Of a stretch of DNA of 52,038 nucleotides, positions 11,743 to 39,881 are shown one piece after another (position 1 is the first letter of the stretch; each line of letters opens with the position of its first letter). Source of the DNA: an uncultured Candidatus Saccharibacteria bacterium. GTDB taxonomy: Bacteria > Patescibacteriota > Minisyncoccia > Phycocordibacterales > UBA9973. The position numbers and the translations under genes were made by a program. The notes beneath the pieces are model-generated. The model did no database searches. It had not been told where the DNA came from and saw only the letters and a program-made list of their open reading frames with translations. The DNA is taken from NCBI GenBank assembly GCA_964637995.1, contig CAZWXV010000002.1:15122-67159 (forward strand), read 5' to 3'.

Positions 11743-13149
11743 ATGTTCCCAAAATCAATTTTAATTTTAGTGTTGGTTTTTTTCTTTTCTGGGTTTAATT
11801 TAGCCCGTGCGGAGTTGGTAATAAATGAATTTGTGTCGGATCCGGAGTCAGGTTCCGAGTGGATCGAGTTGCGTAATCCATCTTCTTCGGAAATCAATCT
11901 CGATGGCTGGAATTGGACCGAACTCGCGAGTCCGGGCGGAGAAAGCGAGCATGAAAGTTCGCCAAGAAATTTAACCGGAATTATTCCCGCCAGTGGATTT
12001 TTTGTAATCAGTATAACCAATGTAAATGGAGTGCTAAATAATGGAGGAGATTCGATAGGTTTATATGATGGCACAACTCCAAAAGATCGCGTAACCTTTG
12101 GGGCTGTGAGTGGTTACCAAGTAGATTTGGAAAAGCCTGCAAAAGGCAAGTCAGGCGCTTTGATTTCCGGAAGCTGGCAAACCAATCAAGAGCCAACCAA
12201 GGGCACGGCGAACCCTTCTTTCGGCTCTTCGGACAACGATGACAATAACGATAATGCTGACGATAACAACAACAATAATGATGATAACGATGAGCCCTCT
12301 TCCGTCAGTACCGCTACTCCTGCCAAAATAAAAACCGAAGTTTCCGTGCGCAATATCGCTTATGTAGGTATCCCGCTCGCATTTCAGGGCAAAGTGACCC
12401 AAGGCGGGGAACAGGTCCATGGCGGCAAATATTTCTGGAATTTTGGGGATGGGGATTTTCGGGAGGTGAAAGTGATAAATGTCGACAAGTTCACCCACAC
12501 TTATTTTTATCCAGGCGAGTATACGGTAATATTTGAACATTATCCCAACTATTTTACCGAAGAGCCGGACGCGTCGGAGAATTTGAATATCAAGGTCATA
12601 GAACCTCAGGTCGCAATTTCCCGCGTGGGAGATGCCGATGATTTTTTCGTGGAACTTTCGAACAATACCGATTATGACGTGGATATGTCGGGATGGTTTC
12701 TCTTAGGTAACATTAAAAGTTTTACCATTCCTAAAAATACTTTCCTTACAAAAAATAAAAAAATAGTTATCCCGGGCAGGACAAGCGGGCTCATGCTCTC
12801 CGACTTGCCGGCGCTCAAGCTTGCCACTCCCAGTAGGGAAATAGTATTCGAATATTTTCCAAATGTTCCTACTTCTACGCCCCAAAAACCGGTATCTTCA
12901 AAAAATGCGAAGAACTTGGAGGCAGAACCTCCAAGTGAAGATAATATTTCCAACTTGGAAAATCTGGGCGCAAATGTAGCAAATGCCGGTGTGCTCGGGG
13001 AAGAGAATACGAGAACTTCACCTCCTTCATTTACTTGGCCTATTATTTTTCTTGGATTCGTCGGTGTTTCGGCTTATGCGGTCTACGCTATCCGGCACAA
13101 GAAACTTGCGCCGGGAGCGGGGAACGATTTCGAACTTTTGGACGAATAA
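11743..13149 (+). CDS. Secreted/anchored lamin-tail-domain (LTD) + PKD-like surface protein
   Basis: 468 aa with a signal peptide. Has an LTD signature LVINEFVSDPESGSEWIELRNPS...INLDGWNW, a PKD-like FGDGDF...HTYFYPGEYTV, a second LTD-like FFVELSNNTDYDVDMSGWFL, and a C-terminal transmembrane helix. Confidence 0.7.
   Translation: MFPKSILILVLVFFFSGFNLARAELVINEFVSDPESGSEWIELRNPSSSEINLDGWNWTELASPGGESEHESSPRNLTGIIPASGFFVISITNVNGVLNNGGDSIGLYDGTTPKDRVTFGAVSGYQVDLEKPAKGKSGALISGSWQTNQEPTKGTANPSFGSSDNDDNNDNADDNNNNNDDNDEPSSVSTATPAKIKTEVSVRNIAYVGIPLAFQGKVTQGGEQVHGGKYFWNFGDGDFREVKVINVDKFTHTYFYPGEYTVIFEHYPNYFTEEPDASENLNIKVIEPQVAISRVGDADDFFVELSNNTDYDVDMSGWFLLGNIKSFTIPKNTFLTKNKKIVIPGRTSGLMLSDLPALKLATPSREIVFEYFPNVPTSTPQKPVSSKNAKNLEAEPPSEDNISNLENLGANVANAGVLGEENTRTSPPSFTWPIIFLGFVGVSAYAVYAIRHKKLAPGAGNDFELLDE
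12229..12293 (+). repeat. Low-complexity Asn/Asp-rich linker coding region
   Basis: Encodes SDNDDNNDNADDNNNNNDDNDE. Confidence 0.8.
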
Positions 13150-13199
13150 CGAAAATACTCCAAAATAACCTTAGAAAAGTAGCTTAAACGCTTAAATTC

Positions 13200-13208
13200 T
13201 GCTATTAT
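13200..13208 (+). promoter_or_regulatory. Extended -10 (TGcTATTAT), 6 nt upstream of the glmS ATG
   Basis: Sequence is tgcTATTATtcccgcATG. Confidence 0.4.
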
Positions 13209-13214
13209 TCCCGC

Positions 13215-15699: not shown

Positions 15700-16758
15700 A
15701 TGCAAGCATTGGGAAAGAAAAATACGAATACCTTTCTTCACAATCTTCGCATCCGTGCTACCGATGGATATATCCGGAAAATAATTCTTACGGAAACGGA
15801 AGATGAGCGCGTACTTCTAGCCGCGAAAATTCTCGCAGGAAAGACGGGCAGCGAAAAAATCGCCGAGCCGATTTTTGTTTGTAGTGCCCCAGACACTGCC
15901 AAGATGAAAGCGCTTGGATTTGCCTATATTGAAATAGAAGAGGAGCGAGCAGAAACTCTCCAAAATTTACTCCTCGAGCTACGGTCGTCAAAGAAAGGTA
16001 GCAAGGATGAATTGACTCCCGAGATGGCGCACCGCCTTGCACGCGACCCCTTGATGTACGGCATGTACCTGTTGCGCCTGGGGGAGGGCGATGGATTGGT
16101 GGCGGGTGCGGAACGTACGAGTGCGGATGTTCTACGGGCAGGACTTTGGCTCGTCGGTAAAGCCCCCGGTATACGGACGGTCTCGAGCTCATTTTATATG
16201 ATTGTCCCGCCTTTTCGGGGCACGGATGGCGAAAAGGTTTCGGAGGTCCTGACTTTTTCCGATTGCGCCGTTGTGCCCGAACCAACTTCGGAGCAACTCG
16301 CGGACATTGCCATTGCGGCCTCGGATGCACGTTCTCGTATTGTCGGAGATGAGCCCAAGGTCGCGCTTCTTTCTTACAGCACCAAAGGTTCCGGCGGCAA
16401 CGGTCAGTCAATAGCCATTATTAGAGAAGCACTCGAATTGGTACGCGGGAGGAGGCCGGGGCTCGTTATTGACGGCGAAATTCAAGCAGATGCGGCGCTT
16501 GTCAAATCTATTTCCGAGCGCAAGGCACCGGGAAATTTACTCGATGGCAGGGCTAACGTATTAATTTTCCCATCCCTCGACGCGGCAAATATCGCCTATA
16601 AGCTCGTAGCGTGTCTCTTGCCGGGAACAGCGGCGCTCGGCCCGGTCTTGCAGGGTATGAAAAAACCGATCAGCGACCTATCCCGCGGAGTACGGGTCGA
16701 AGATATCGTCAATATAGTAAGCATTGTTGCATCCCAGGCCCATGAACCTCATGAATAA
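15700..16758 (+). CDS. pta: Phosphate acetyltransferase
   Basis: 352 aa with [37 protein letters not shown], and [18 protein letters not shown]. Confidence 0.85.
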
Positions 16759-19123
16759 AAAGAATTATTTACCCGAAGACGTTATCGCAAAAATCGATGC
16801 TTACTGGCGCGCAGCCAACTATCTCTCGATCGGGCAAATTTATCTCTATGAAAACCCGCTTCTCAAGCGCCCGCTTTCGGCAGACGATATCAAGCCGCTA
16901 CTCATGGGTCATTGGGGCACGTCACCGGGGCAGAATTTCATCTATGTGCATCTAAATAGGATAATAAAAAAGTACGACCTCGATATGCTTTACATCTCCG
17001 GCCCCGGCCACGGCGGCCCGTCCTTGCTTGCCAATACTTACCTTGAGGGCACCTATAGTGAAGTGTATCCGGAGATCAGCCAGGACGAGGAGGGGATGAA
17101 GAAATTGTTCAAGCAATTTTCCTTTCCCGGCGGCGTACCCAGTCACGTCTCCCCGGAATGTCCCGGGTCTATTCACGAGGGCGGTGAGCTAGGTTACTCA
17201 CTTTCCCACGCGTTCGGGGCGGTATTTGATAACCCGGATTTAATTACCGCATGCGTTGTAGGGGACGGGGAAGCGGAGACGGGACCCTTGGCGGCCTCCT
17301 GGCATTCGAACAAATTTCTCAATCCTAAGACCGATGGCGCGGTGTTGCCCATTCTCCACTTAAATGGATATAAAATTTCAAACCCGACTATTTTTGCGCG
17401 TATTTCAAAAGAAGAATTAGACCAGTTGTTCCGCGGGTATGGCTGGATACCGCACATCATCGAAGGCGAAGATCCACAGACGATGCATCAAGCGATGGCA
17501 GAAAAACTAGATGAGGTCGTTCTCGAAATACAGCGCATACAAACAGATGCTCGGCAGCGGAATGTAACCACCCGGCCACGCTGGCCAATGATAATTCTCA
17601 TAACGCCGAAAGGTTGGACTGGGCCGAAAGTTATCGACGGCAAACCGAATGAAGGCACTTTTCGTTCGCATCAAGTCATATTTGCCGATCTCAAAACAAA
17701 CAAAGAACATTTAACAGAGTTCACCAAGTGGCTCAAGAGCTATAAACCGGAAGAACTATTTGACGCCGCAGGCAGATTAAAACCGGAACTCGCGGAACTG
17801 GCGCCGACCGGCTCGCGACGCATGGGATCGAATCCGCATGCGAACGGCGGTTTATTACTGCGTGAACTTCACATGCCGGATTGGAAGAATTATGGAGTAG
17901 TTATCAAAAAACGCGGGGAAGAAGGAGAGGGGGCGACTAGGGTATTCGCGCGGTTTCTGCGGGATATAATCAAGGCGAACGAAAAAGAGCGGAATTTTCG
18001 CTTATTCGGTCCGGACGAGACCATATCTAACGGCCTCGGTGCGGTATTTGAGGTTACCGATCGGCAAATGATGACGGCAGAGATAAGCGATGACGAGTTT
18101 ACATCACCGTCCGGGCGCGTGATGGAGATTTTGAGTGAGCACTTGTGCCAAGGGTGGCTTGAGGGATACCTCTTGACAGGCCGGCACGGGTTGTTCAACA
18201 GCTACGAAGCTTTTATTCATATTATTAGCTCCATGTTCAATCAGCATGCCAAGTGGTTGAATGTTACCGCGCGTATTCCCTGGAGAAAAAAAATCGCGTC
18301 TTTAAATTATCTTATTTCCTCTCACGTATGGAGACAGGGACATAACGGCTTTACTCATCAGGATCCCGGGTTCATCGATCATGTGTATCAAAAGAAAGCC
18401 GATATTATCCAGGTCTATCTGCCGCCCGATGCGAATTGTTTGCTGACTGTTATGGACAAGTGCCTGCGGAGCATGCATAAAATTAACGTCGTCGTAGCCG
18501 GCAAGCACCCAATGCCGCAATGGTTCTCCGTAGAGGAGGCGGTTACCCACTCCGAGAAAGGCATAGGAGTTCTCCGTTGGGCAAGCAACGACAAAGACGC
18601 AGAACCGGACGCCGTTATGGCCTGCGCCGGAGATGTGCCGACGCTCGAAGTGCTAGCGGCGGTATCCATAATTCGGGAACATCTTCCAGAACTTAAGCTT
18701 CGGGTTATTAACGTGCTGGACCTCATGACTCTTCGGCCACGCAAAAATCACCCTCACGGCACTACAGATGAGGAATTCGAGGCGCTCTTTACGAAAGACA
18801 AACCGATAACTTTCATTTTTCACGGATATTCGTCGCTCATTCATCGCCTCACCTATAGCCGTCCTAACCACGAAAACATGCATGTGTATGGATACAGGGA
18901 GGAGGGCACGACTACCACTCCTTTCGATATGACAGTCCTAAACTCGATAGACCGCTATCACATTGTAAAATACGTCATTGAGTCACTCCAGAATAAGGGT
19001 GATAAGGAAACGCGTCTGTTCAAACTAATGGAAGAAAAACTTGACGAACATCGCCGGTACGTCGTCGTGCACGGTGAGGATGTGCCCGAAGTGCGAAACT
19101 GGAGATGGCCTAGAGAAGGATAA
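16724..19123 (+). CDS. xfp: Xylulose-5-phosphate/fructose-6-phosphate phosphoketolase
   Basis: 799 aa with [18 protein letters not shown] and [11 protein letters not shown]. Alternative in-frame starts at 16742 or 16751 would shorten the overlap with pta. Confidence 0.9.
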
Positions 19124-19506: not shown

Positions 19507-21837
19507 ATGAGCCATCACGAAACATATAAAGTAAAAGGCATGCACTGTGCGTCGTGCTCCAGCATTATCGAAAGAACGGTCAAAAAAATTGACGGGGTGG
19601 AAGCAATTTCAGTTAATGCCGGCACCGAAAATGCTAAAATTTCTTTTGACGATAGCAAGACTAATCCCGAGCAGTTTAACGAAAAGCTGGAACCCTTAGG
19701 GTATTCTCTGGTGGTAAATAAAAAAGAAGACCACAGTATGCACGGCGCAGGAATGACTGCGAGTGAAATGGGGATGAGCAAGGATGAGCATGCCGCGCAT
19801 CTCGGACTTAATCAGTCAAAACAAGAAAAACTCGCGGAACTGAAAGACATGCGGAACAAGATCATTTCCGCCATACCGCTTGCAATCATAAGCATTTTTG
19901 TCATGGGTTCCGAAATTCTTGCGCCATACGGAGTGGTGCCCGAAATGCCGTACGTATGGGAAGAATTTTTTCATCATTTAATGCCCATTCTCGCCACTTA
20001 CATTTTGTTTGTGGTAGGCAGGCCTTACCTCCTGGGTGTTTACCGTTTTTTGCGCTACGGCAAGGCGAATATGGATACGCTCATAGGCATAGGCACGTCG
20101 GTCGCGTTTTTATACAGTTTTGCCGTTACGGCTTTTGAAGAAACCCTGGCGCCGTTCATCGACACAGCGAGCACGTATTATGATGTGACCATCATTGTCA
20201 TTGCCTTTATCGCGCTCGGAAAATATCTGGAGACACGTTCCAAGATGAAAACCGGCGACGCGATTGAAAAGCTTTTAGGTCTCCAAGCCAAGACCGCGCT
20301 GGTGGTCCGCGGGGGCAAAGAAGCCGAAATTCCAATCGAACAGGTAGTTCACGGAGATGTGATTGTGGTAAAACCCGGAGCAAAAATTCCCGTGGACGGC
20401 ATTATCGTTTCCGGTTCCTCGTATGTGGACGAATCCATGGTCACCGGTGAGCCCATGCCGGTGCAAAAAAAAGAAGGGGACAGCGTGGTGTCCGGAACCA
20501 TTAACACTACCGGGAGCTTTACTTTTAAAGCTACAAAAGTGGGCAGTGAAACCCTGCTTGCCAACATCATCAGAATGGTGGAGGAAGCGCAGGGGTCCAA
20601 AGCGCCTATCCAAGCACTTGCGGACAAAATTTCAAGTATATTCGTGCCGGTGGTGCTGGTAATAGCGGGGCTAACTTTGGCACTTTGGCTTATTGTTGGC
20701 ACAGAGTATTTGGGCTTCTCTCAAGCACTTTCATTTGGGCTAGTTTCTTTTGTGGGCATTCTCGTTATCGCCTGTCCCTGCGCGCTGGGACTCGCCACAC
20801 CTACGGCGATAATTGTGGGAGTGGGCAAAGGCGCCAAAGAAGGCATACTTATCAAAGATGCGGGCACTCTCGAGAAACTGCATAAAGTAACTGCGGTAGT
20901 CGTAGATAAAACAGGCACGCTTACTTTTGGCAAACCGGAGCTTGTCTCCGTTAATAATTTTTCCGGCAAATCCGACGGGGAACTCGTTGCTGTTCTCGCG
21001 GCTCTGGAAAATAAGTCCGAGCATCCGATAGCCCACGCGGTGTTAAATTATGCCAAGAGGAAAAACATAAAGTTTGAGGATGTTGTGAATTTTGAAATCG
21101 TTAAAGGCAAGGGACTAAAGGGCGTGGTTGGCGGCACGGAGTATTTTGCCGGCAACACGAAACTGATTGAAGACCTGGGGTTGAATTTTGATAAGGCTAA
21201 AATAGAAAAAGAAACTCTTGAGGGGAAAACTCCTATAATCCTTGCCACAACAGAGAAACTCTTGGGCATTGTTATGGTGGCCGATGCGATAAAAGAAGAA
21301 GCCATTCTCGCGGTAAAAAATCTCCATAGGCTTGGCATAAAAGTCGTGATGCTTACCGGCGACAATAAAAATACCGCCAAGTACATTGCGGAGCTCTTGG
21401 GCATCGACGAGGTTGTGGCGGAAGCGATGCCGGAAGACAAATTAAAAAAGATTAAAGAGCTTCAGGCCGAGGGGCACATTGTAGCCATGACAGGCGATGG
21501 CGTAAACGACGCACCGGCCTTGGCGCAGGCGGACGTGGGTATCGCGATGGCGACCGGTACGGATGTAGCGATAGAATCCGCGGGCATCACGCTTCTTCAC
21601 GGCGATATTTCCAAACTGGTAAAAGCAATCAGGCTGTCCAAGATAACCATGCGCGGCATAAAGCAAAATCTTTTCTGGGCCTTCGCCTACAACATTATCG
21701 GCATTCCGCTTGCGGCCGGCGCGTTCTATCCGTTCTTCGGGTGGCTTCTGTCGCCGGTCTTCGCGGGGTTCGCGATGGCCATGTCGTCCGTCTCGGTGGT
21801 CGGAAATTCGTTGCGCATTAAAAGTAAAAAATTGTAA
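19507..21837 (+). CDS. copA: Copper-translocating P1B-type ATPase
   Basis: 776 aa. Has an N-terminal HMA domain (GMHCASCSS), then [17 protein letters not shown] and GDGVNDAP. Confidence 0.95.
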
Positions 21838-21873
21838 ACCTGTCGCGATTATTAATTAATTATAAATAATTTT

Positions 21874-22515
21874 ATGAACAACAGAGAAATTTGGTTTGGT
21901 ATCGGGGGCGTAGTGGTCGGGGTAATGATTGCATTATTATTTCGTCCTCAAGTGGGGTCCTGGGGCAGGATGCAGGGAGTGAATAGACCGGGCAACTTAA
22001 ACAGCGGCCAAATTGGCAGAACCATGGGCCTCAATCTCGACCAGCATTTCATTGAACAGATGATTCCGCACCACGATGGCGCTATTGCTATGGCAAAATT
22101 GGCTTTGGTAAAAGCCGCTCATCCGGAAATCAAAACCCTAGCTCAAACAATAATAGAAGCGCAGGAAAAAGAAATAAAAGACATGCAGGGCTGGTATAAA
22201 AATTGGTTTGGCAGAGATGTTAAGAAACAAAATGCATATTCATACGGAATGATGGGCGGCGGCGGCATGATGTCTTCCGGCGGGATGCACATGGGCGGAC
22301 AGGATGAAATAAAAGCGCTTGAAAATGCTCCTGACTTTGACAAAGCGTTTATTGAGTCAATGATCCCACACCATCAGTTGGCAATTATGATGGCGCAGAT
22401 GCTGAAAGCTGGCACTGATATACCGGAAATGTTGTCCCTTGCCGAGAATATAATAGAATCGCAGACGGCAGAAATAGAGCAGATGCAGGGATGGTACCAG
22501 AGCTGGTATAAATAA
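21874..22515 (+). CDS. DUF305-family protein (two repeats) with a Met/Gly-rich linker
   Basis: 213 aa. Contains MIPHHDGAIAMA and MIPHHQLAIMMA, separated by YGMMGGGGMMSSGGMHMGG. Confidence 0.8.
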   Translation: MNNREIWFGIGGVVVGVMIALLFRPQVGSWGRMQGVNRPGNLNSGQIGRTMGLNLDQHFIEQMIPHHDGAIAMAKLALVKAAHPEIKTLAQTIIEAQEKEIKDMQGWYKNWFGRDVKKQNAYSYGMMGGGGMMSSGGMHMGGQDEIKALENAPDFDKAFIESMIPHHQLAIMMAQMLKAGTDIPEMLSLAENIIESQTAEIEQMQGWYQSWYK

Positions 22516-28379: not shown

Positions 28380-29390
28380 ATGGCAAAGAACTACACATTT
28401 CACGTTTCCGGCACGCATTGCGCGTCCTGCAAAATCTTGATTGAAGATATTCTGAAAGAGCAGGACTTTGTGAAAAGTTCTAGAGTGGATTTGAAAAAAC
28501 AAACTTTAGAAATTGAGACTGAAAGCGAAGAGAACGCTGAAGAAATTGCCGCCATCCTGACCGAAAAGATAAAGCCACACGGCTATGAGCTGTCAGTCGA
28601 AAAAAAGCTTCCTGTGCAAAAAGGAGACGACGTTATCTGGAAAGCCGTACCTGTAGGGCTTGGCGTGCTCGCGCTTTTTTTCCTCCTGCAAAGGTCGGGG
28701 ATTCTCAATTTTGGCTTGGGCGGCCAAGCCACTCCGGCGACCAGTTTTATCATCGGTCTGGTTGCCTCGGTTTCCAGCTGTCTGGCGATTGTGGGAGGTT
28801 TGGTGCTGTCGCTCTCGGCGAAAATATCACAGGATGATGTAAGCGACACTAAAACTTTCCTGCTTTTTCACATAGGAAGATTGTTCAGTTTTGCAATTTT
28901 GGGCGGAGTTCTTGGAGCGGTTGGCAACGCGATAGGTATTAATTTTACATTTACCGCAATTCTTGGAATTATTGCATCTCTGGTTATGCTATTGCTTGGA
29001 TTGAATTTAGTCGGAGTATTTGCAAAAAGTCACATTACTTTACCGTCAGGAATTTTTAATTTCTTCCGGAAGATAGAACACAAAACTTTCACGCCTCTTC
29101 TTATTGGCTTTGGAACATTTTTCTTACCTTGCGGGTTTACGCAGTCAATGCAAGTTGTCGCGCTCGGCAGCGGTTCCTTTGTTTCCGGGCTCATGATAAT
29201 GTTTGCGTTCGCGCTTGGCACGCTACCAATGCTCGCATTGCTTTCTTTCGGCTCGGCATCTTTCGCGCACGGGAAGCACGCGCCGCTTTTCTTCAAATCC
29301 GCGGGTGTGGTCGTGGTGGGCCTCGGATTGTTTGCGTTGCTCTCAGGTCTGGCAGCCTTGGGTATTATCAGCCCGTTATTTAGTATATAA
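28380..29390 (+). CDS. HMA-domain fused to a TauE/SafE-like (DsbD_2-type) membrane protein
   Basis: 336 aa. Has an N-terminal FHVSGTHCASCKILIE, then about six transmembrane helices with FFLPCGFTQSM. Confidence 0.75.
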   Translation: MAKNYTFHVSGTHCASCKILIEDILKEQDFVKSSRVDLKKQTLEIETESEENAEEIAAILTEKIKPHGYELSVEKKLPVQKGDDVIWKAVPVGLGVLALFFLLQRSGILNFGLGGQATPATSFIIGLVASVSSCLAIVGGLVLSLSAKISQDDVSDTKTFLLFHIGRLFSFAILGGVLGAVGNAIGINFTFTAILGIIASLVMLLLGLNLVGVFAKSHITLPSGIFNFFRKIEHKTFTPLLIGFGTFFLPCGFTQSMQVVALGSGSFVSGLMIMFAFALGTLPMLALLSFGSASFAHGKHAPLFFKSAGVVVVGLGLFALLSGLAALGIISPLFSI

Positions 29391-29849: not shown

Positions 29850-29878
29850 TTGCCTGTATTTCCAATAAACCTTATAAT
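29850..29878 (+). promoter_or_regulatory. Promoter TTGCCT-17-TATAAT upstream of the giant surface protein gene
   Basis: TTGCCT at 29850-29855 and TATAAT at 29873-29878, giving a leader of about 50 nt before the TTG/GTG start. Confidence 0.5.
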
Positions 29879-29934: not shown

Positions 29935-32900
29935 TTGGTGAACAAAATAAAAAAAATTGGCCTGACAAAGAGCATCAAAACGACACTGCCCGCAGTTTTG
30001 CTGTTTTTCTTTGTTTTTTACAACATTCTCTTTGCGGCGCCGGGTACGCCGCTTATGCTCCACCATCAGGGCCGGCTGCTTGATTCTTCGGGCAATCTTT
30101 TAGGTGGCTCTTCCGGCACTAATTATTGTTTCCGCTTTTCTTTCTATGATAATGCCACGGTAGGTAGCGGTTCCAAACTTTGGCCTGCCGGTACGCCGTC
30201 AAAAATGACGGTCAACGTCAAAGACGGAGTACTCAATGCCGACATCGGCGACACGACCGCCGGCGGAGACTCTCTGGATTTTAATTTCCAAACTACAGAT
30301 GAAATTTATCTCAACATTGAGGTGGCCAATTCTTCGGGAGGGTCCTGCGCGAGCGTAACTACCTTCGAAACCTTGAGTCCGCGCCAGCGCGTAGTTTCCG
30401 CAGGTTACGCTATCAATTCTAAGACAGTCGGCGGCTTCACTCCTTCGCAGACTCCTACGGGCAATCAGATCCCCGTGCTTACTTCCGGCGTACTGGCTTT
30501 GGGCGCGAATGACATCACCATGACCGGTTCTATTGGCACGACGCTCGCGAGAATTCTCAAGGGCTGGTTCACGGATTTGGAAGTGACCAATTCGATAGTC
30601 GGTAGCATCACGGGGAATGCGGGAACGGTAACGACCAATGCGAACTTAACGGGGGCAGTTACCTCTGTCGGCAATGCTACATCTTTAGGTTCGTTTACAT
30701 CAGCCAACTTACTGACTGCTTTAACTGATGAAACGGGAACGGGAGTCGCGGTGTTCGGCACAGCGCCGACATTTACTACTAGCATAACTGCGCCTCTTGT
30801 AATAGGGGGAACGGGAACAACTGATGATTTGATTTTAAGAACTACTTCTGGTGTGGGAGCGACAGGCGCGGATATGATTTTCCAAGTCGGCAATAATGGC
30901 GCCACGGAAGCCATGCGGATACTGAATTCCGGTTTTGTGGGAATAGGTACGACAGCGCCATCAACCCTCCTTCACCTTCGGAGCGCGGACCCAGTGATGA
31001 CCTTTACCGACACAACGGCTAGTAGTGATGAGTTCCATATTCGGAACGGCGCTGCGGGGACAGCTATGTTTGATATTTATAATGCTACTGAAACCCAGAG
31101 TATGCTTACGATAGTGGGAGATAGCGAGGTGAGAATCGGCTCAAGTACAAATCCGGGAGGTATAGGCAATGCTAGTCGCTTACTTGTTTATGGCGGAACA
31201 AACGGTGCAAATATTGACGCTTTGGGAGATGGAACCATTGTCGGCGGCGACCAGGCGACTATTGAACTGGAAGGTTCTGACTACGCAACAGAGTTCAAAA
31301 GCACTCGCCTTCAGTACCATGGGGTAAATGCTATCGGCACAACGATGGGTTTCAGCCTGGTTAACCTCGGACAATTGACATTTCAGAGCGCTAGTACGGC
31401 TATAATAAGGACGACCAATGCCATACCAATAATCTTTGGAACAGACGACACAGAAAGAATGCGTCTAGATAGCACCGGAAAACTCGGTATCGGTTCAATC
31501 TCACCCGAAGCCCTCCTCGAAGTACAGGGAATAGAAGCCACCGATGCGATCATCGCGCTCGATGCGGACGACGGAGACGATGCTACTGATACTTGGTTTA
31601 TAAAATCTCTGGCTTCCGACAATTCTCTTTCAATATTAAATGATGTTACTGAAGTTTTTAATCTTTCCTCAGGAGGGAATCTTGCGGTTGACGGCACTAT
31701 TGCCGCTTCCAACTTCTCAGGTTCTTCTTCCGGTGCAAATACCGGCGATGTCACCTTGGCTGGAACTCCCGACTACATAACTATCGCCAGTCAAGTCATA
31801 ACCAGAAACAAACTTGACCCGGCGGATGATTTAAATACTTTTGCGTCAGGCGTTCTTGCTGGTCTAGTAACCGACGAAATCGGAACGGGAGCTTTAGTAT
31901 TTGCAACTTCCCCAACTTTGACTACCCCGGTTTTAGGCGTAGCCACTGGAACAAGCCTTGCCACATCAGCCCAAAATATTTTCACGGCTACCGGAGGGAC
32001 TGCCCCGCTCGTTGTTCGTTCGGCTACGGCTACGGATGACGATTTAAGACTCTTGCCTTTTACAACCGGTGCTGCGCGCTTTGCCGGCATTATAACCTCC
32101 GCTGACCTTACCGCTGATAGAACTTATACTTTTCCAGATACTACCGGAACGGTTGCCCTGACCACTAACAATCTCTCGGTCTTTGCCGCTACCACTTCGG
32201 CTCAACTGGCCGGAGTAATCAGCGATGAAACCGGCAGCGGAGTTCTAGTCTTCGCCACAAGTCCTACCCTTGTAACGCCTGCTCTCGGAACACCGTCAGC
32301 ATTAGTTGGCACAAACATTACAGGCACAGCTTCCGGTTTGACTGCCGGTAATGTGACGACCAATGCGAATTTGACGGGAGCTATCACTTCTGTCGGCAAT
32401 GCCACATCTTTAGGCTCGTTTTCATCAGCTAATTTATTGACTGCCTTAACGGATGAAACGGGAACAGGAGTGGCGGTCTTTGGAACAGCTCCGACATTTA
32501 CAACCCAAATAACCACACCCCTTGTTTTAGGCGGAACTTCGACTACTCAAGATTTATCTTTCCAAACCACATCTGGCGTAGGCGCCACGGGAGCCGATAT
32601 GCATTTCTTGGTAGGCAACAATGGAACTACGGAAGCCATGACTATTTTGAATAGTGGTTTTGTTGGAATTGGAACAGTAGCCCCGCTAACTGCATTTCAC
32701 GTGGTAGATACTTCGGGAACTGTTCTCTACCTTGATGAGTATGTGGGGTCGGCTTCAGGAGCAACCATCCGTGGACGAAAAGCGCGGGGAACGGCAGCAG
32801 CACCTCGAAGGGCTAACACCGGGGATACACTTGCAGGATTTAATGCATTCGGAGCAACAGCTGTCGATGATGCGACTGACGCGGTATTTCCTTCTAACGC

Positions 32901-35900
32901 AAACGGGCAGTTCAGATATTTCGCCGCGGAGAATTTCACTTCCACGTCCACAGGAACATATTTGACTTTAACCACTACACCTACAGGGTCTACAACCTCT
33001 GCAGAAAGGTTTAGAATTGACCCTTCCGGAGATGTCGGGATTGGCGCCACGGACCCGGCTCTTGTTTCAGGATCCTCCGATAGGATTTTAGCAATTGAAG
33101 GAGCCACTAATCCGTTAATCGCTCTTAAGAACACAACAGCCAATCAGCAGTGGGCTTGGTATGTCGGTAGTGCCGGCACACTTACTGCGTTCGACGCGAC
33201 AAGCACAAGTAATAGAATGGGTATTACTACGTCCGGCAATGTCGGCATAAATACCATTTCACCTCTTGTCAGACTCGACGTCGCAGGCTCAGGCAGATTT
33301 ACCGGCACAGCGACTTCTGTTTTGACCGGTACTATTGATCCCGCGGCTTCCACTACGGTTACTGGTGTAGGAACTTTATTTACTACTGAACTAGTAGTCG
33401 GCGACAGAATCACCGTCACGGGCGAGACAAGAACGGTTACAGCCATCGCTACGAATACTAGTTTGACCGTAGATACAGCTTTCACGGATAACTTAAACGA
33501 CACCTCTCCCGACAAACTGGCGGCTATATTGCTGGCGAGGGATTCCAGCAATGTAGTGAAGGTTGCGGTGAATGATTCCGGGTTTGTTGGAATAGGAACC
33601 AGCAGTCCTTCCACGTTACTTTCTGTGGTTGGAGTAGGCACCGCAGAATCGGCACGAATAGACAATCCACAATCAACTACCGCTTTTGCTTCCACATTTG
33701 GAGCTTTGAATTTGGTAAATTCTGACGCTACGGCAAATAACTTTGCGAGACTGAATTTCACAGGTTCTTCAAGTACCGCAGCTTCAGCCACAGTCGCAGG
33801 TAGATTGCTTGACCACACTAATAATTATGCCGACCTTACTTTTTGGACTAGAAGCGCCGCAGGATTCACGGAAAAAATGACAATTCTTTCCACAGGTGCC
33901 GTCGGCATCGGGACAAACGCGCCGGACTACACCTTAGACGTAGCTGTCAGCGATTCCGCCACTGCCACCGTTGCACAACTCTTGAGGCTGTCTCACAGGA
34001 GCACCGGCCTTGTTGCCAGCGGTTTTGGAGCCGGAATCCGGTTTGATCTGGAGACTGCAGCTGACACACTTCAGGAGGCGGGAAGCATAGAAACTTCATG
34101 GAGAAACGGCCCAGATGCGGATGCGCATATGATTTTTAAACTTTTTACCGAAGGCGGAACATCCCAGCAGTTCTTTAAAATTGATTCCATAGGCTCCGTG
34201 GAGATTGGAGCGGCTGATAGCACCGTGGCTACAATATTGAATAATAAAATAACTTTACACGATCCATCCACAGCCCTTTCCAACGATGCTACATTTGGAA
34301 CCATTGATTTCCAACACTCTGATGCTTCAGATCCCGGTGTACCTGTTAAGATAGAAGCCAGAGCAGACGGCACGACCGGCGGCGGGGCCTTGGTTTTCTC
34401 GACCGGTTTCCCTTCCGTCGACCCGGCATTGTCCGAGAAAATGCGAATAACTAATTCCGGCAACGTTGGTATCGGTACCTCGGCGCCTCTACTAAAACTC
34501 GACGTCGCCGGTTCGGAAAGAGTCACCGGTGCTGCAACTTCTGTTTTAACAGGAAGTATTAACCCAACAGCATCAACAGCTGTTGTTGGCGTTGGCACTC
34601 TCTTCACTACGGAATTAGTAGTTGGTGACAGAATTACTGTTAGCGGAGAAACAAGAACAGTAACAGTCATAACTGATGCTCTAAACCTTACCGTTGATAC
34701 AGCTTTTACCGATACTGCTAACGACACAACGCCGGATAAATTACCCGCAATATTCTTAGCCAGAGATTCCAGTAATGCGGTGAAATTCTCGGTTAATGAT
34801 TTGGGAAATGTGGGTATCGGAACAGCAGCGCCGCTATCTACTTTCCACCTATTTAGTAGTGCAACATCTGATGTATTTGCAGGCATGGGCCTTGACCCCT
34901 CTTTCGGGGGAGCAGGTAGCGCAATGAATTTCGGTTATTCTGGCGCATCTTTTGGTAGAGGTTCAGGTTTCTTTAATGTTAGACCAGACGCTTCTGCCAC
35001 AGGCCTTAACCCATCTCTTAGATTCGCAACAAATAATATTGTGGGTCTTGTTATTGATAAAAACCAAAATGTGTCAATTGGCGCTTCTCTCGCCGTGGGA
35101 ACCAGCGCGGTCAAAGTATTTGGGATCGGCAACGGTACTGCTCCTACAACAGCCCCCGCCGACATGATTCAGTTATGGTCTGCCGATTATGCAGCGGGAG
35201 ATGCCCGTCTTTTCCTTCGTTCCGAATCGGGCAACGCGATGGCTTTGGGCAACAGCACTATCGTGGGCGGCTCGGCAACAACGGATGATTTGATTCTTCG
35301 CACCACATCCGGAGTCGGAGCCGCTGGCGCGGATATGATATTCCAAGTGGGGAACAACGGAGCCACGGAATCTATGAGAATTTTAAATAGCGGCAATGTC
35401 GGCATATCGACTACTGTGCCGCAGTCCTTGCTGGATGTGCAAGGTCCAGTGGGTACGGGAGCAACATCCGCAGGTATCCTCACTCTTGCTACAAAGGAAC
35501 TTACTATAGTTGATAACGACCAGTTGGGACGAATCAATTTTAATTCACCTCTTGAGTCGGATGGTCTAGATTCTATTTTAGCAGGCGGGGCCATATGGGC
35601 TGAAGCCGAAGCTACTTTCAGCACTACAGTTAATAGCACAGCATTGGTATTTGGCACAGCTACTACATCGGCGGCGGTGGAAAGAATGAGGATCGACAGC
35701 GCGGGCGGGATTACTTTCCCTGCCGAAGCAGGAGCATTCGCGAACGACTATTTGTGTATAGCTACGGGGACTGGAGCCATCAGTTCCAAGGCAACAGCAT
35801 GTACCGGAAGCTCTTCATTACGATACAAGAAAAATATTAAAGACCTTGAACTTGGGCTTGATGCGGTGCTGGCGATGCGCCCTGTGGAGTTTGATTGGAC

Positions 35901-36573
35901 TCTAGAATACATAAAAAATCCTAATGCCCCTCGCCAGATAGGATTCATTGCCGAAGAGATGGAAAAGATCAGTCCATTGTTCGTATCGTATGAGGATGGG
36001 CAAATAGAGGGAGTAGAGTATATGAAACTTACATCTGTATTAGCAAAGGCAATTCAGGATTTGAATCTAAATCTAGAATCAATAGCAATTCCACTTGATT
36101 TTGAAAATGAAAAATCGTTTGCGGAAAGGTTTTTCGCCAAGATGACGGAGTGGCTCGCGGATGCGGGCAATGGCATAACGGATATGTTTGCCAATACGTT
36201 CAATGCCAAAGAAAAAATTTGTGTGGACGGGGAGTGCCTGACCAAGGAAGACATCCGCGCCCTGCTCATCCTATCCGGCTCATCTTCTTCAGGTTCTTCA
36301 GGCGGCGGCGGTTCTCCTGCTCCTGAGCCCGCGCCGGAACCTGCCCCTGAACCAACTCCGGAACCAGCACCCGAACCAGTTCCGGAGCCCGCACCCGAGC
36401 CGACTCCAGAACCGGAACCTGTCCCTGAACCAATCCCGGAACCTACACCAGAGCCTACTCCCGAACCCGCACCCGTACCCGAACCTGTTGTTGAACCTAC
36501 ACCTGAACCCGAACCTGCCCCAGAACCCGTCACCGCCGATGGCGGGACCCCGCAGGATGCGGTGGCGCTTTAA
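29935..36573 (+). CDS. Giant (2212 aa) secreted phage-tail-fibre-like protein with a peptidase-S74 intramolecular chaperone domain and a PEPx-repeat tail
   Basis: TTG (29935) or GTG (29938) start, with an N-terminal signal/anchor. Ten modules end in ...MRI..SG.VGIGT..P...[15 protein letters not shown]...[13 protein letters not shown]...[17 protein letters not shown] domain matches the tail-fibre/endosialidase chaperone pattern. The C-terminus is a Gly/Ser run followed by (PEPx)n. Confidence 0.85.
30631..30960 (+). repeat. Intragenic repeat family 1, copy a (330 nt)
   Basis: Encodes [22 protein letters not shown]...[32 protein letters not shown]. Clearly similar at the DNA level to 32356..32685, offset exactly 1725 nt and in frame. 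Confidence 0.85.
32356..32685 (+). repeat. Intragenic repeat family 1, copy b
   Basis: Encodes [22 protein letters not shown]...[32 protein letters not shown]. Confidence 0.85.
33235..33609 (+). repeat. Intragenic repeat family 2, copy a (375 nt)
   Basis: Encodes [36 protein letters not shown]...[24 protein letters not shown]...FVGIGTSSP. Confidence 0.85.
34459..34833 (+). repeat. Intragenic repeat family 2, copy b (offset exactly 1224 nt)
   Basis: Encodes [36 protein letters not shown]...[24 protein letters not shown]...NVGIGTAAP. Confidence 0.85.
35266..35421 (+). repeat. Intragenic repeat family 1, partial copy c
   Basis: Encodes [52 protein letters not shown], matching the second half of copy a. 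Confidence 0.8.
36316..36528 (+). repeat. Tandem 12-nt (Pro-Glu-Pro-X) coding repeat
   Basis: Encodes [71 protein letters not shown]. Confidence 0.9.
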
Positions 36574-36582: not shown

Positions 36583-37890
36583 ATGCTTCGTAACTTAACC
36601 GGCAAAATTTTTCTCATTTTAATTCTTTTGGTTTTTGGCGCCGGAGCTTTTTCTTACGCGTTCGCGGATTTTAGCAGCACCAGTTTTACGCTGGAAAACC
36701 CAATCAATATCATCGAGGGCGGACAGTCATCCTCGACCAGTTTCCAATATTTTTCCAGCACCGGTCAGCTTACCAGCGGGCAAAGCACCAGCACAAGCTT
36801 TAGCAAAAATACCGGCTTTTTATATTATCCTACGGCGACTTCCCCGGCCCTTTCTGCCACGGCTGGTAATTCACAAGTGACGCTCGATTGGACCGCGGCA
36901 GTCGGAACCCTAGCAAACATCACGAGCTACGAAGTAGGCATCAGCGCTACATCCGGAGGCACTTACACCTATACCTCAGTCGGCAACGTGCTTTCCGACA
37001 CCAGGACGGGCCTAACCAACGGCATCACTTATTTTTTTAAAGTCCGCTCTTATGCCGGGGGTCTTCTTTTGAGCGAGTCTGCCGAAGTAAGCGCTACTCC
37101 GGTTGCGCCGGTTACTCCGCCCAGCGGAGGCGGTGGAGGCGGTGGAAGCGGCAGCTTTCCCGCCGAAATTATTCTTTCCGGACGAGCATATCCTCTGAGC
37201 AGGGTTAGCGTCCTAAAAGACGGGCAGCTTGCGGTAACGACCATAGCCGGACCGGACAGCAACTTTACCGTGTCCTTGGGCAATCTCTCGACCGGCGATT
37301 ACACCTTTTCTGTCTATGGCGAAGACAAGGCCGGCCGGCGCTCCAGCCCGTTTATTTTCCAGGTTTATATTACTCGCGGCGTGGCTACGAACGTCGGGGG
37401 CATATTCATATCTCCGACCATCGCCGTGGATAAAAAGGAGGTAAAAAGAGGCGAAAACATAGTTATCTTCGGGCAAAGCGCCTCGGTTTCCGACATCGTT
37501 ATCAGTGTCAATTCCGAACAGGAAATTTTCAAGAATGCCAAAAGCGATGCGAGCGGCGCGTATCTCTTGAATTTTGACACTTCGGTGCTGGAGCTCGGCG
37601 GGCACTCCGCAAAGTCCAAAGCTTTAAAGGGCGGTGAAATCAGCGATTTCGGAAACCCGGCGCTTTTCGCGGTCGGGTCGAAGACATTGCCGGCTCAGTC
37701 GATTCTCCTCGGCAAGTGCGACCTAAATGAGGACGGCCGGTGCAACCTGGTAGACTTTTCCATCGCCGCCTACTGGTATAAACGTCCGCTTGCGGGAGGC
37801 ATAATACCCAAGGAAGTGAAATACTTGAACGGGGACGGCAGGATAGACCTGGTGGATTTCAGCATCATGGCTTTTTACTGGACGGGGTAA
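36583..37890 (+). CDS. Secreted FN3 + Ig-like + C-terminal dockerin-repeat protein
   Basis: 435 aa with a signal peptide. Has three S(S/T)TSF motifs and an FN3-like segment (VTLDWTAAVG...ITSYEVG...GITYFFKVRSY). Ends with two EF-hand-like dockerin repeats, DLNEDGRCNLVDFSIAAYW and LNGDGRIDLVDFSIMAFYW. Confidence 0.75.
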   Translation: MLRNLTGKIFLILILLVFGAGAFSYAFADFSSTSFTLENPINIIEGGQSSSTSFQYFSSTGQLTSGQSTSTSFSKNTGFLYYPTATSPALSATAGNSQVTLDWTAAVGTLANITSYEVGISATSGGTYTYTSVGNVLSDTRTGLTNGITYFFKVRSYAGGLLLSESAEVSATPVAPVTPPSGGGGGGGSGSFPAEIILSGRAYPLSRVSVLKDGQLAVTTIAGPDSNFTVSLGNLSTGDYTFSVYGEDKAGRRSSPFIFQVYITRGVATNVGGIFISPTIAVDKKEVKRGENIVIFGQSASVSDIVISVNSEQEIFKNAKSDASGAYLLNFDTSVLELGGHSAKSKALKGGEISDFGNPALFAVGSKTLPAQSILLGKCDLNEDGRCNLVDFSIAAYWYKRPLAGGIIPKEVKYLNGDGRIDLVDFSIMAFYWTG

Positions 37891-37896
37891 AGCATT

Positions 37897-38769
37897 ATGA
37901 ATAATTACACTAAAAATTTCCTTATCTTGGTTTTGTCTCTGTTTTGGCTCGTGCCCGGGACCCTTTTTGCGGCGGAAATATTTTTTAGGTCCGATCAGAA
38001 TGTTTTTCCGGTAAAAGAAAGTTTCTTGGTAGAAGTATTTATGGACACGGAAAGCGCTCGGATAAACGCAGTGGAGGGAACTATCTTGTTTCCGGACGAG
38101 CTTTTGGAACTAAAAGAGATCAGAGAAGGAAACTCCGCTCTCAATTTCTGGGTAGACAAGCCCGAAAGTGCGGAACCCGGGAAGATATCTTTTTCCGGAA
38201 TGACCCCCGGCGGATTTTCCGGAGCTGACCGGCTTTTATTCGGAATAATATTTGAAACCAAAAAGCTGGGGGAGAGCAGCCTCCGATTCGGCGGAACCGT
38301 AGCCCTGCTTAACGACGGATTGGGGACAAAAACGGATGTAGAAGAAACAAATTTCGATTTTGCCGTTTCCGCTTCGGCCGGAGCCGCGGACAGAGACTTG
38401 GCGCTCCTGGATACCGAGCCGCCGGAGAGCTTTACTATTTTTGTTGCGAACGAGCCCTCCTTATTTGAAGGCAAATATTTTGCCGTATGGAGTACGGTGG
38501 ATAAAGGCGCGGGCATGGACCACTACGAGGTGCGTGAAGGCTTCTGGGCAGACTTCGAAACGGCAGAAAGCCCGCATATACTAGCTGACCAGTCGCTCCG
38601 GAAAAATATATACGTCAAGGCGGTGGATAAATCGCAAAACGAAAGAGTGGTAAAAATGAAAGCCCAAAACGGCGGCCTCGGGTTGGCCGCCTGGACGGTT
38701 CTTGTTATAATCATACTAGTGGTTATCTTGATGTTACGTAAAAAAATATGGCCAAAGCGTCCCGAATAA
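37897..38769 (+). CDS. Cohesin-like domain protein with a C-terminal membrane anchor
   Basis: 290 aa with a signal peptide. Contains FPVKESFLVEVFMDTESARINAVEGTILFPDELLELKEIREGNSALNFWV...GKISFSGMTPGGFSG...LLFGIIFETKKLGESSLRF (cohesin pattern) and the transmembrane helix AAWTVLVIIILVVILML near the C-terminus. Confidence 0.65.
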   Translation: MNNYTKNFLILVLSLFWLVPGTLFAAEIFFRSDQNVFPVKESFLVEVFMDTESARINAVEGTILFPDELLELKEIREGNSALNFWVDKPESAEPGKISFSGMTPGGFSGADRLLFGIIFETKKLGESSLRFGGTVALLNDGLGTKTDVEETNFDFAVSASAGAADRDLALLDTEPPESFTIFVANEPSLFEGKYFAVWSTVDKGAGMDHYEVREGFWADFETAESPHILADQSLRKNIYVKAVDKSQNERVVKMKAQNGGLGLAAWTVLVIIILVVILMLRKKIWPKRPE

Positions 38770-39881
38770 TAATATTTCTTTTCTTGTTCATCTTTCTTCC
38801 GGTTGTGGCGCACGCGGCGACTCTTTCGCTTTCTCCCGACACCGGCAGTTTTGAAGTAGGTGACCGAGTTTCGGTTCGGGTTATTGCCTCATCCTCGACT
38901 TCCCTTAACGCCGTGTCGGGCACGGTATCGTTCCCAACATCGCTTTTTACCGTGGAGTCGGTTTCCAAAGCGGGCTCCATAATTGATTTCTGGGTGACCG
39001 AACCTTCGGTTTCCAAGGCTTCCGGCACTGTCAAATTCGAAGGTGTGGCGCTCGGCGGCTTCAACGGCTCTTCGGGCACTGTGGCCACTCTCCACTTGCG
39101 CGCCGCAAAAACCGGCTCAGCTAAGCTGACGTTCCAATCCGGCCAGATACTAGCGAATGACGGCGCGGGGACGAACATTACCGGCACTCTTGCCGGAGCG
39201 ACATATACTATCAAACCGGCATCCCCAAAGCCCGTGCCCATACCGGAAGAAGAGATAGAGCCGGAGGTAACTCAACCATCCCCATCGCTCCAGGCGCCGG
39301 AGATAATGCTCGGTTCGAAGTACGGTGCTGGAGCCATCATCGGTACGTCTATTCACGGCAAGGTGCAGGTGCTGATAACTTTCGTGGCGCGGGACGGAGT
39401 GAAAATCTTCATTGCCGGTATTTCCGACAATGAGGGAGGTTTTGGCATTATCGTACCGACCTCGCTTAAACGGGGAGTTTATACCGTAAGCGCGGTGGTC
39501 ATCAAAGAAGACAAGACCAACAGTGATCCTTCGAATACCATTGTCGTATCGGTGGGCAGCATTTTCTCGGATATCGGCTGGGAAGTATCGCTCCTGATTA
39601 TCCTCCTCGTACTCTGCATACTATATCTTTTGCTTCGCATTCATACACATCTCAAAGACAAAGGGCCGAGGAGCCCTATTCCCACCAAGGAGGAAATGCG
39701 CCAGGCGGAGGAGACCATACGCAAATCATTTAAAGCCCTACAGGACGATGTGACCGACCGGTCGCGAGGAATAATAAACCCCGTGGAACGGGCCAACATA
39801 GAGGAACTTAAAAAAGATATTAACTCCACCGAGGCCTTGTTGGAGAAAGAAATAAAGAGTATAGGTGAAGAGCGAAAATAA
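38748..39881 (+). CDS. Cohesin-like domain protein with a TM helix and a cytoplasmic coiled-coil tail
   Basis: 377 aa with a signal peptide ending AHA. Contains LSLSPDTGSFEVGDRVSVRVIASSSTSLNAVSGTVSFPTSLFTVESVSKAGSIIDFWV...GTVKFEGVALGGFNGSSGTVATLHLRAAKTGSAKLTF and the transmembrane helix VSLLIILLVLCILYLLL. The tail is charged. Overlaps the previous gene by 22 nt. Confidence 0.65.
   Translation: MAKASRIIIFLFLFIFLPVVAHAATLSLSPDTGSFEVGDRVSVRVIASSSTSLNAVSGTVSFPTSLFTVESVSKAGSIIDFWVTEPSVSKASGTVKFEGVALGGFNGSSGTVATLHLRAAKTGSAKLTFQSGQILANDGAGTNITGTLAGATYTIKPASPKPVPIPEEEIEPEVTQPSPSLQAPEIMLGSKYGAGAIIGTSIHGKVQVLITFVARDGVKIFIAGISDNEGGFGIIVPTSLKRGVYTVSAVVIKEDKTNSDPSNTIVVSVGSIFSDIGWEVSLLIILLVLCILYLLLRIHTHLKDKGPRSPIPTKEEMRQAEETIRKSFKALQDDVTDRSRGIINPVERANIEELKKDINSTEALLEKEIKSIGEERK

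Follow-up and report, generated by a model that had tools for sequence, protein, structure and literature searches.

A Dockerin-Tipped Protein and Two Membrane Cohesins Conserved in Patescibacteria: A Possible Envelope Socket for Giant Tail-Fibre-Like Proteins

Introduction

The 52-kb window analysed in the present work (52,038 nucleotides of contig CAZWXV010000002.1, assembly GCA_964637995.1) contains a block of four genes packed head to tail on the plus strand, which encode a giant tail-fibre-like protein followed by three smaller proteins: P1, which ends in a dockerin, and P2 and P3, two membrane proteins that each display a cohesin fold. The genes of P1, P2 and P3 form a cassette that recurs across Patescibacteria and that we propose to be an envelope socket for the giant fibre. 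The means by which ultrasmall episymbiotic bacteria attach to a host have remained a major problem, for which molecular detail has so far become available for type IV pili and the Pam pilus only. A preceding sequence-only reading, made from the letters of the window, had described the three proteins as a non-cellulosomal cohesin-dockerin set with one dockerin facing two distinct membrane cohesins, and the analysis reported here follows up this description. All coordinates are those of the window and refer to its plus strand, unless otherwise stated.

Organization of the Gene Block

The giant open reading frame (ORF) and the genes of P1, P2 and P3 succeed each other with gaps of 9 nt, 6 nt and -22 nt, respectively, the last value corresponding to an overlap of the two cohesin genes (38748-38769), which the sequence-only reading had measured correctly at 22 nt. 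A search relying on consensus matches only gave no convincing terminator inside the block. A candidate promoter (29850..29878), consisting of a sigma-70-like TTGCCT-17-TATAAT sequence identified by consensus match only (10/12), is located 57 nt 5' of the giant gene and may represent the start of a four-gene operon comprising the giant gene and the P1-P2-P3 cassette. At the other end of the block, the gene of the housekeeping ATPase YchF begins 42 nt past P3.

The Dockerin-Tipped Protein P1

P1 (36583..37890) is a polypeptide of 435 residues that begins with a signal peptide and a conserved N-terminal head, continues with an FN3 domain and a pair of Ig-like domains, and ends in a dockerin made of two repeats. 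The head, referred to as p1n (residues 29-85, 36667..36837), comes straight after the signal peptide and shows the β-strand motif S-x-[SN]-F three times; several of its residues are invariant among orthologues. The spacer that follows (36838..37680) comprises the FN3 domain (residues 86-172), a Gly-rich linker and the two Ig-like domains (residues about 193-265 and 270-366). Pfam recognizes fn3 at residues 93-170 and Big_6 at residues 197-260, the profile of the P1 family matches FN3 structures in the PDB, and the Pfam scan detected no catalytic family in P1. The earlier description of a dockerin protein that carries FN3 and Ig-like domains and lacks a catalytic domain is thus borne out, with respect to the dockerin by the matches of the orthologues.

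The dockerin (residues 378-435, 37714..37887) corresponds to the last 58 residues of P1. The C-terminus, CDLNEDGRCNLVDFSIAAYWYKR...KYLNGDGRIDLVDFSIMAFYWTG, consists of two EF-hand-like loop-helix repeats, DLNEDGRCNLVDFSIAAYWY and YLNGDGRIDLVDFSIMAFYW, identical at 12 of 23 positions. These two tandem repeats of ~22 residues, each made of a Ca loop (D-x-N-x-D-G...D) and a subsequent helix, display the architecture of a type I dockerin. Among 39 P1 orthologues, 36 match the Pfam family Dockerin_1 at E<=0.01 (best E 6.9e-9), and the residues D380, N382, D391, D425, F426, S427, I428 and W433 are invariant; D380, N382, D391 and D425 occupy Ca-ligand positions, of which three others, D384, N388 and D418, are conserved in at least 90% of the orthologues. 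The profile of the P1 family aligns over the full length of the domain with solved dockerins, e.g., 2y3n_B (E 1.6e-4) and 5nrm_B (E 1.2e-3), and also 4fl4_A and 1daq.

A search of 1.84 billion representatives retrieved the P1 head in 161 proteins, always at residues about 23-100. A dockerin C-terminus occurs in 96 of the 150 head-bearing proteins listed, whose total length varies from 160 to 512 residues. Conservation bears on the head and the dockerin, whereas the FN3/Ig middle part is variable or absent, as expected of a connector equipped with a variable spacer.

The Membrane Cohesins P2 and P3

P2 (37897..38769) is a protein of 290 residues built up from a signal peptide, a cohesin-fold domain (residues 24-160, 37966-38376), a small second β domain (residues 170-256), a C-terminal transmembrane helix (residues 260-284) and a short tail of 6 residues. 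P3 (38748..39881), which comprises 377 residues, similarly associates a signal peptide, a cohesin-fold domain (residues 22-157, 38811-39218), an Ig-like domain (residues 182-272) and a transmembrane helix (residues 278-302, 39579-39653), to which a tail of 75 residues is appended. No sortase (LPXTG) motif is present in P2 and P3. The identity between the cohesin domains of P2 and P3 amounts to 32% over 126 residues (E 1e-16), and, judged from this similarity, these domains are paralogues. The picture of two divergent membrane cohesins built on a common pattern, as drawn by the sequence-only reading, agrees with these data, since the listed motifs are present and each protein possesses a transmembrane helix.

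At the level of sequence, Cohesin is the top specific Pfam family among the orthologues, with matches in 5/36 orthologues of P2 (best E 1.2e-5) and in 6/36 orthologues of P3 (best E 2.1e-6), and some relatives of both proteins have already been named "cohesin domain-containing protein" by NCBI. The profiles of the P2 and P3 families gave marginal or irrelevant matches only among PDB sequences (5aoz, E 0.36), so that a comparison of folds was needed. The AlphaFold2 models exhibit a predicted local distance difference test (pLDDT) value of 89.7 for P2 and 80.8 for P3, reaching about 90 in the N-terminal β domains. Foldseek searches of these models against the PDB returned, among the top 50 matches, exclusively cohesins for P2 and nearly exclusively cohesins for P3, and PapD or FimC chaperones are absent from both lists. 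The first-ranked structure is the same for the two proteins, namely the cohesin-FN3 pair of the GH84C enzyme of Clostridium perfringens (2w1n, E 1e-11 and 6e-10, respectively). Single cohesin modules superpose with TM scores of 0.72-0.82, e.g., 2vo8 (0.82), 6kgf (0.78), the Archaeoglobus fulgidus cohesin 2xdh (0.77), and also 4dh2 and 1aoh, the best values amounting to 0.82 for P2 and 0.79 for P3. Both models display the nine-stranded flattened β-sandwich, with jelly-roll topology, that characterizes cohesins; the absence of such a fold had been named beforehand as an outcome that would refute the sequence-only reading, and this outcome did not occur.

The tail of P3 (residues 303-377, 39654..39878) consists of two amphipathic helices, modelled by AlphaFold2 at residues 314-340 and 345-374. 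Its hydrophobic positions, spaced 3-4 residues apart in a heptad-like manner, are conserved in 36 orthologues. A hidden Markov model (HMM) of the tail matched exclusively P3-type proteins in 79 loci. The sequence-only reading had announced a cytoplasmic tail of about 75 residues rich in Glu, Lys and Arg; the length (75 residues), the charged composition (44% D/E/K/R) and the heptad-like spacing are as stated, and the cytoplasmic location is presumed from topology rules only, i.e., the signal peptide, the single transmembrane helix and the Lys, Arg and His residues that follow this helix.

Distribution and Conservation of the Cassette

Homologues of P1, P2 and P3 amount to at least 1896, 521 and 149 matches, respectively, and the three families are confined to records labelled as Patescibacteria, e.g., Minisyncoccia, Paceibacterota, Nomurabacteria, Parcubacteria and similar groups. 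One genome of each species was scanned, which yielded 78 loci, among which 65 contain strong matches to all three proteins. The P1, P2 and P3 genes are colinear, adjacent and located on one strand in 64 of these 65 loci. The set had been treated as isolated by the sequence-only reading, a view which has to be abandoned in favour of a phylum-wide cassette that usually lies 3' of a giant gene. Searches of the available literature collection for cohesin or dockerin in Patescibacteria revealed no study of the P1-P2-P3 cassette.

In most loci, an extra, fourth gene located 3' of P3 encodes a paralogue of 420-470 residues, in which a cohesin is combined with a second domain of the P2 type, and a fifth gene, also for a cohesin, sometimes follows. 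This extra cohesin gene is absent from the window, from L005 and L006, which are most closely related to it, and from L003. It is found, for example, at 11143-13882 in locus L001, and similar genes occur past P3 in most of the loci L007-L063. With regard to dockerins, every dockerin ORF in the window and in 79 related loci is of the P1 type, which means that two to three cohesins are available per dockerin, the reverse of the cellulosome situation. The dockerin is also the most conserved module of the cassette, with a mean pairwise distance of 0.35 as compared to 0.46 for the P3 cohesin and 0.63 for the P2 cohesin.

These counts bear on the idea that the cassette could build a miniature cellulosome or another carbohydrate-degrading assembly, an idea that arises from the predominance of cellulosomal modules among the Foldseek and PDB matches. 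However, no glycoside hydrolase, carbohydrate-binding module (CBM) or multi-cohesin scaffoldin was found in the cassette or in the window, each cohesin protein harbours a single cohesin, and the lone dockerin protein lacks a catalytic domain and faces an excess of cohesins. Such an assembly is extremely improbable, and the non-cellulosomal character attributed to the set from the outset is retained. No cohesin or dockerin other than those of P1-P3 is present in the 52-kb window.

The same data allow us to weigh the interpretation put forward by the sequence-only reading, according to which P2 and P3 would be alternative anchors for a free adaptor, allowing a switchable or bivalent tethering, with the P3 tail relaying outside-in signals to an intracellular partner. 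Two cohesins as divergent as those of P2 and P3 indeed face one dockerin, the two repeats of this dockerin are nearly symmetric and share the same DFSI helix, as in dockerins with a dual binding mode, and the conserved tail occurs on P3 only. However, most relatives possess three cohesin genes rather than two, and the fixed gene order and the translational coupling are better suited to a stoichiometric complex. In addition, no signalling domain, kinase or regulator adjoins the cassette, and the P3 tail has no detectable homologue beyond P3 in the loci examined. Alternative anchoring combined with signalling is accordingly held to be unlikely.

The Upstream Giant Protein

The giant protein (29935..36573) comprises 2212 residues and starts at a TTG codon. 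It successively displays a signal peptide or membrane anchor, a conserved N-terminal domain delineated by cross-locus similarity (residues about 16-311, 29980..30867), fibre segments, a Peptidase_S74 domain (residues 1960-2015, 35812..35979; Pfam PF13884, E 1e-10), which belongs to the intramolecular chaperones/autoproteases, and a tail rich in Pro and Glu. The repeated fibre segments contain seven (V/L)GIG(T/S)xxPxxx(L/F) motifs. The protein matches PHROG families of phage tail fibres (E 2e-41, 2e-24 and 1.5e-11) and, in the PDB, the tips of the mosaic adhesive trimer (MAT) fibres of Bdellovibrio, namely 8ond (Bd2133, E 1e-7) and 8oml (E 3e-7), together with 8on4 and 8ol4, the four matches ranging from E 1e-7 to 1e-3. 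It thus combines an S74 chaperone with MAT-related fibre segments and can be regarded as a MAT- or tail-fibre-like protein.

An SSLRYK motif, which starts at residue 1960, was compared with the SDxxxK motif described in PMC10769870, and self-cleavage of the giant protein by its S74 domain is suggested by this comparison. The ~200 residues located past S74 (~2016-2212, 35980-36573) include a stretch of Ser and Gly as well as a long repeat of the form (P-E-P-x)n, the latter giving a low-complexity match in the PDB to the N-terminus of an AcfD-like lipoprotein (23px, E 7.5e-8). This piece would be released if S74 self-cleaves. Several long antisense ORFs of 138-271 residues also occur within the giant gene (32727-36533, minus strand); their translations are repetitive and rich in Ser, Thr, Val and Pro, and these ORFs are in all likelihood not genes, but artefacts due to the repeats of the coding sequence.

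The presence of similar proteins was surveyed in the 52 loci that extend at least 3 kb 5' of P1, where the upstream ORF is usually cut by the edge of the locus. In 40 of these loci, P1 is preceded on its own strand by an ORF of at least 700 residues, and 23 of these ORFs cluster with the giant of the window. In L030, L032, L041 and L051, only residues 16-311 of the giant show similarity (E 1e-25 to 1e-29), whereas the protein of L005, the closest relative, shares both ends with the giant, including the tail located past S74, and lacks the middle part and the S74 domain. Three small genes inserted between the giant and P1 in L001 were also considered, and were discarded as genes of unrelated transmembrane proteins.

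The nature of the P1 head varies together with the class of the giant. A P1-type head accompanies 22 of 23 class-1 giants, being fused in 21 of them, and none of the seven class-2 giants. Instead, a Cys-rich module starts P1 in four class-2 loci (L040, L062, L065 and L072). The corresponding P1 orthologues are located at 8060-9136 in L040, 8036-9082 in L062, 8649-9692 in L065 and 8834-9907 in L072, and their heads follow the pattern GCG..GEQCDG...GG.SC..LG..GG.L.C.S.C.F..S.C. In three other loci (L015, L018 and L020), the head is carried by a separate protein of ~270-300 residues, whose gene (at 4988-5815, 5040-5846 and 5047-5946, respectively) separates that of the giant from that of a P1 without a head, and these head-only proteins are a natural split of the connector. 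The co-variation of head and giant points to the head as the end of P1 that would hold the cargo.

Relationship to the Pam Pilus

The P1 head also resembles the N-terminal part of PamT. P1 matches the NCBIfam equivalog model CPR_pilus_PamT (NF058579) at profile positions 6-136 with a score of 27.4 bits, for a cut-off of 240, and the model also matches 9/10 short relatives made of a head and a dockerin (E 1e-7 to 1e-3, positions about 6-78). This raises the question of whether the cassette could be a reduced Pam pilus from the candidate phyla radiation (CPR), in which P1 would be the PamT-like tip and P2 and P3 would correspond to PamC and PamD, or to the PamR tether, the subunits being joined by donor-strand exchange instead of a cohesin-dockerin contact. 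Besides the PamT matches, the domain plan speaks in favour of this idea, PamC and PamD consisting of a signal peptide, two β domains and a transmembrane helix at the C-terminus, and next to the pam operons lies a conserved tail-fibre-like gene (bioRxiv 10.64898/2026.03.03.709456). However, the PamT scores, ranging from 18 to 32 bits, fall far below the cut-off and cover the signal peptide and the head only, and the head-only proteins of L015, L018 and L020 gave no PamT match. None of the Pam models matches P2 or P3, whose folds are those of cohesins. Finally, neither the pilins PamA, PamB and PamE nor the PapD-like PamC and PamD gave any NCBIfam or Pfam match in the cassette or its neighbours.

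A reduced Pam pilus is, on this evidence, decidedly unlikely. The identification of P1 as a PamT orthologue was rejected on the same grounds, i.e., the weak scores, the failure of the head-only proteins to match PamT, the lack of Pam matches for P2 and P3, their cohesin folds and the lack of nearby Pam pilins. To judge from the sequence similarity, no more than a common N-terminal module can be postulated for P1 and PamT.

A Proposed Socket for the Giant Fibre

The P1-P2-P3 cassette is proposed to be a dedicated envelope socket, which probably anchors the giant fibre on the cell surface; we give this reading an even chance of being right. The folds, the order of the domains, their conservation within the families, the synteny and the co-variation of head and giant are observed, whereas all binding steps, the choice of the cohesin partner, the stoichiometry, the topology and role of the P3 tail and the connection with the fibre are inferred. 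The setting would be a monoderm bacterium of the Patescibacteria, the closest genome record being labelled Minisyncoccia. P2 and P3 would be exported and held in the cytoplasmic membrane by their C-terminal helix, each exposing one cohesin outside. P1 would be a secreted connector, with a Ca-dependent dockerin that would insert into the cohesin of one or both of P2 and P3. The head of P1 would hold the cargo, for which the best candidate is the upstream giant's conserved N-terminal domain, the giant being viewed as a trimeric tail-fibre-like adhesin, and the base of the fibre would be carried through the wall by the FN3/Ig spacer. As to P3, its two-helix tail most likely serves to oligomerise the anchor or to fix it to a cytoplasmic partner. 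The fixed organization of the cassette, the giant neighbour, the extra cohesin gene and the two-ended character of P1 favour such a fixed socket over alternative anchors.

A more specific version of the model, put forward tentatively and with some doubt, considers the cassette as the missing surface receptor for MAT-type fibres in Patescibacteria, with the cohesin-dockerin joint, familiar from cellulosomes, as the membrane socket of a fibre that captures hosts. The PamT-like head would grip the N-terminal domain of the fibre, possibly by β-strand complementation as in the Pam pili, and the coiled-coil tail of P3 would either trimerise the socket, in keeping with the three-fold symmetry of the fibre, or connect it with the cytoplasm.

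Several observations weigh against the socket. As to the domains themselves, P1 of the window scores 21.5 bits with Dockerin_1 (PF00404), 1.4 below the gathering cut-off of 22.9, and the Pfam family Cohesin (PF00963) gives no match to P2 or P3 at E<=0.1. With respect to the fibre, an iterated S74 HMM found this domain on the giants of five related loci only, so that S74 does not define the neighbour gene, and the fibre motif is abundant in only 9/52 of the upstream ORFs, which indicates that the upstream giants are heterogeneous. Moreover, 12/52 loci lack an upstream giant, the giant is located downstream in five loci, and the giant of the window could be anchored unaided by its own N-terminal hydrophobic segment. 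The co-variation of head and giant, for its part, is confounded by phylogeny. Finally, a mirror-tree comparison of the dockerin with each cohesin in 52 loci gave partial r values of 0.05-0.08, i.e., nothing beyond the shared phylogeny.

The lack of a mirror-tree signal also counts in favour of another explanation, in which P1, P2 and P3 would not bind each other at all, P1 being a Ca-binding adhesin for host glycans or wall components, and P2 and P3 independent membrane-anchored surface proteins kept in the operon for co-expression. To our knowledge, many non-cellulosomal cohesin and dockerin modules are devoid of a demonstrated partner, which also speaks for this explanation. A dockerin-domain protein without an adjacent cohesin has, in addition, been found essential in a Saccharibacterium (PMC10633639). 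On the other side stand the strict adjacency of one dockerin gene to cohesin genes in nearly all of the loci compared, the position of the dockerin as the most conserved module and the invariance of its Ca-loop residues, and the absence of mutual binding is considered improbable. The essential dockerin protein of Southlakia, SEML1_0315, was itself considered as a possible P1 orthologue and rejected because of its context, a stand-alone gene coding for 927 residues without cohesin neighbours.

The socket model is of interest in several respects. The cassette is widespread, with more than 1,800 P1 relatives and 78 genome loci, and links giant phage-like fibres with a pair of interaction modules that have been studied in depth. 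Should it be correct, the model identifies the anchor of such fibres, a point left open by the study of the Bdellovibrio MAT fibres, and it widens the uses of cohesin-dockerin pairs to the architecture of the envelope in monoderm CPR bacteria. Since the presumed partners are small soluble domains, the idea is directly testable in vitro.

Genomic Surroundings

The remaining part of the window is an ordinary chromosomal region, which contains genes of pentose-phosphate enzymes, a phosphoketolase, a copper-resistance cluster, LeuRS and MurJ. The transketolase is split into two adjoining ORFs (8817-10667), the first coding for the N-terminal TPP-binding part (281 residues) and the second for the pyrimidine-binding and C-terminal parts (332 residues). 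The phosphoketolase gene (16724-19123) is full-length and starts at a TTG codon (NCBIfam E=0, 1372 bits). The last 35 nt of the preceding gene, which codes for a phosphate acetyltransferase (15700-16758), lie within it; this pair of enzymes fits the fermentative metabolism of Patescibacteria. The copper-resistance cluster, located just 5' of the cassette (19507-22515 and 28380-29390), includes a P-type ATPase of the CopA type with a CopZ-like domain at its N-terminus, a metallochaperone of the CopM family and a protein of 336 residues with an HMA/CopZ-like N-terminus. A protein of 468 residues (11743-13149), with two matches to the Lamin Tail Domain (Pfam LTD, E 1.5e-21), is likely another surface protein encoded in the window.

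Comparison with Known Systems

The anchoring scaffoldins of cellulosomes, e.g., OlpA, OlpC and SdbA of Clostridium thermocellum and ScaE of Ruminococcus flavefaciens, rely on type I/III pairs, in which a single cohesin fixed at the surface receives a dockerin partner, an arrangement that is predicted here for P2 and P3. The models of P2 and P3 superpose on the cohesins of OlpC, OlpA and ScaB/ScaC (4dh2, 3ul4, 4uyp and 5n5p), and the two Ca-loop repeats of the dockerin are common to P1 and the cellulosomal systems. However, the anchoring scaffoldins are attached by SLH domains or by sortase, whereas P2 and P3 possess a C-terminal transmembrane helix. The P1-P2-P3 set is also free of enzymes and CBMs, its lone dockerin protein is a connector with a conserved head of its own, and the host belongs to a wall-poor, ultrasmall episymbiont lineage.

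The closest structural matches of P2 and P3 are found outside cellulose degradation, among the modules of C. perfringens, namely the GH84C pair (2w1n), which comes first for both proteins, and the GH33 cohesin (2vo8), and in A. fulgidus (2xdh). Like P2 and P3, these proteins display a cohesin followed by an FN3 or Ig-like domain. However, the C. perfringens and A. fulgidus modules are carried by secreted enzymes or soluble proteins, whereas P2 and P3 are membrane proteins, one of which has a presumed cytoplasmic tail, and belong to a phylum-wide cassette located beside a giant fibre gene.

With respect to the giant, the MAT fibres of Bdellovibrio consist of a signal peptide, an invariant N-terminal domain, a mosaic body and an S74 or non-S74 end, and their N-terminal domain is presumed to bind an unidentified element of the cell surface (Caulton et al. 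2024, PMC10769870). The giant of the window has in common with the MATs of Bdellovibrio bacteriovorus the fibre segments of Bd2133 and related tips and the C-terminal S74 chaperone. The giants described here also follow a MAT-like plan, with a conserved N-terminal domain after the signal peptide and a mosaic, variable remainder; this likeness is one of general plan. Bdellovibrio is a diderm, in contrast to the monoderm bacterium considered here, and the giants are two to three times longer than the MATs. We know of no cohesin-dockerin cassette located beside the MAT genes of Bdellovibrio.

The Pam pilus has been solved in Candidatus Mycosynbacter amalyticus, where PamT is the proposed tip subunit and a donor-strand acceptor (Troman et al. 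2026, bioRxiv 10.64898/2026.03.03.709456). The pilus and the cassette are both CPR-specific, and both associate proteins with signal peptides, membrane-anchored β-domain helpers with a transmembrane helix at their C-terminus, and a tail-fibre-like neighbour. They differ by the absence of the Pam pilins from the cassette and by the cohesin folds of P2 and P3, which are not PapD-like. Their distributions differ as well, the Pam pilus being reported mainly from Saccharimonadia and Microgenomatia, and the cassette occurring in records labelled as Minisyncoccia, Paceibacterota, Parcubacteria or Nomurabacteria.

At the level of single domains, the proteins are already known, public annotation labelling their relatives as cohesin or dockerin proteins. 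Several features set P1-P2-P3 apart from both the anchoring scaffoldins and the non-cellulosomal pairs of C. perfringens and archaea, namely a phylum-wide, fixed cassette, an anchoring by transmembrane helices, a cohesin protein whose conserved two-helix tail is presumably cytoplasmic, a single dedicated dockerin connector with a PamT-like head, and the linkage of the genes to those of giant tail-fibre-like proteins.

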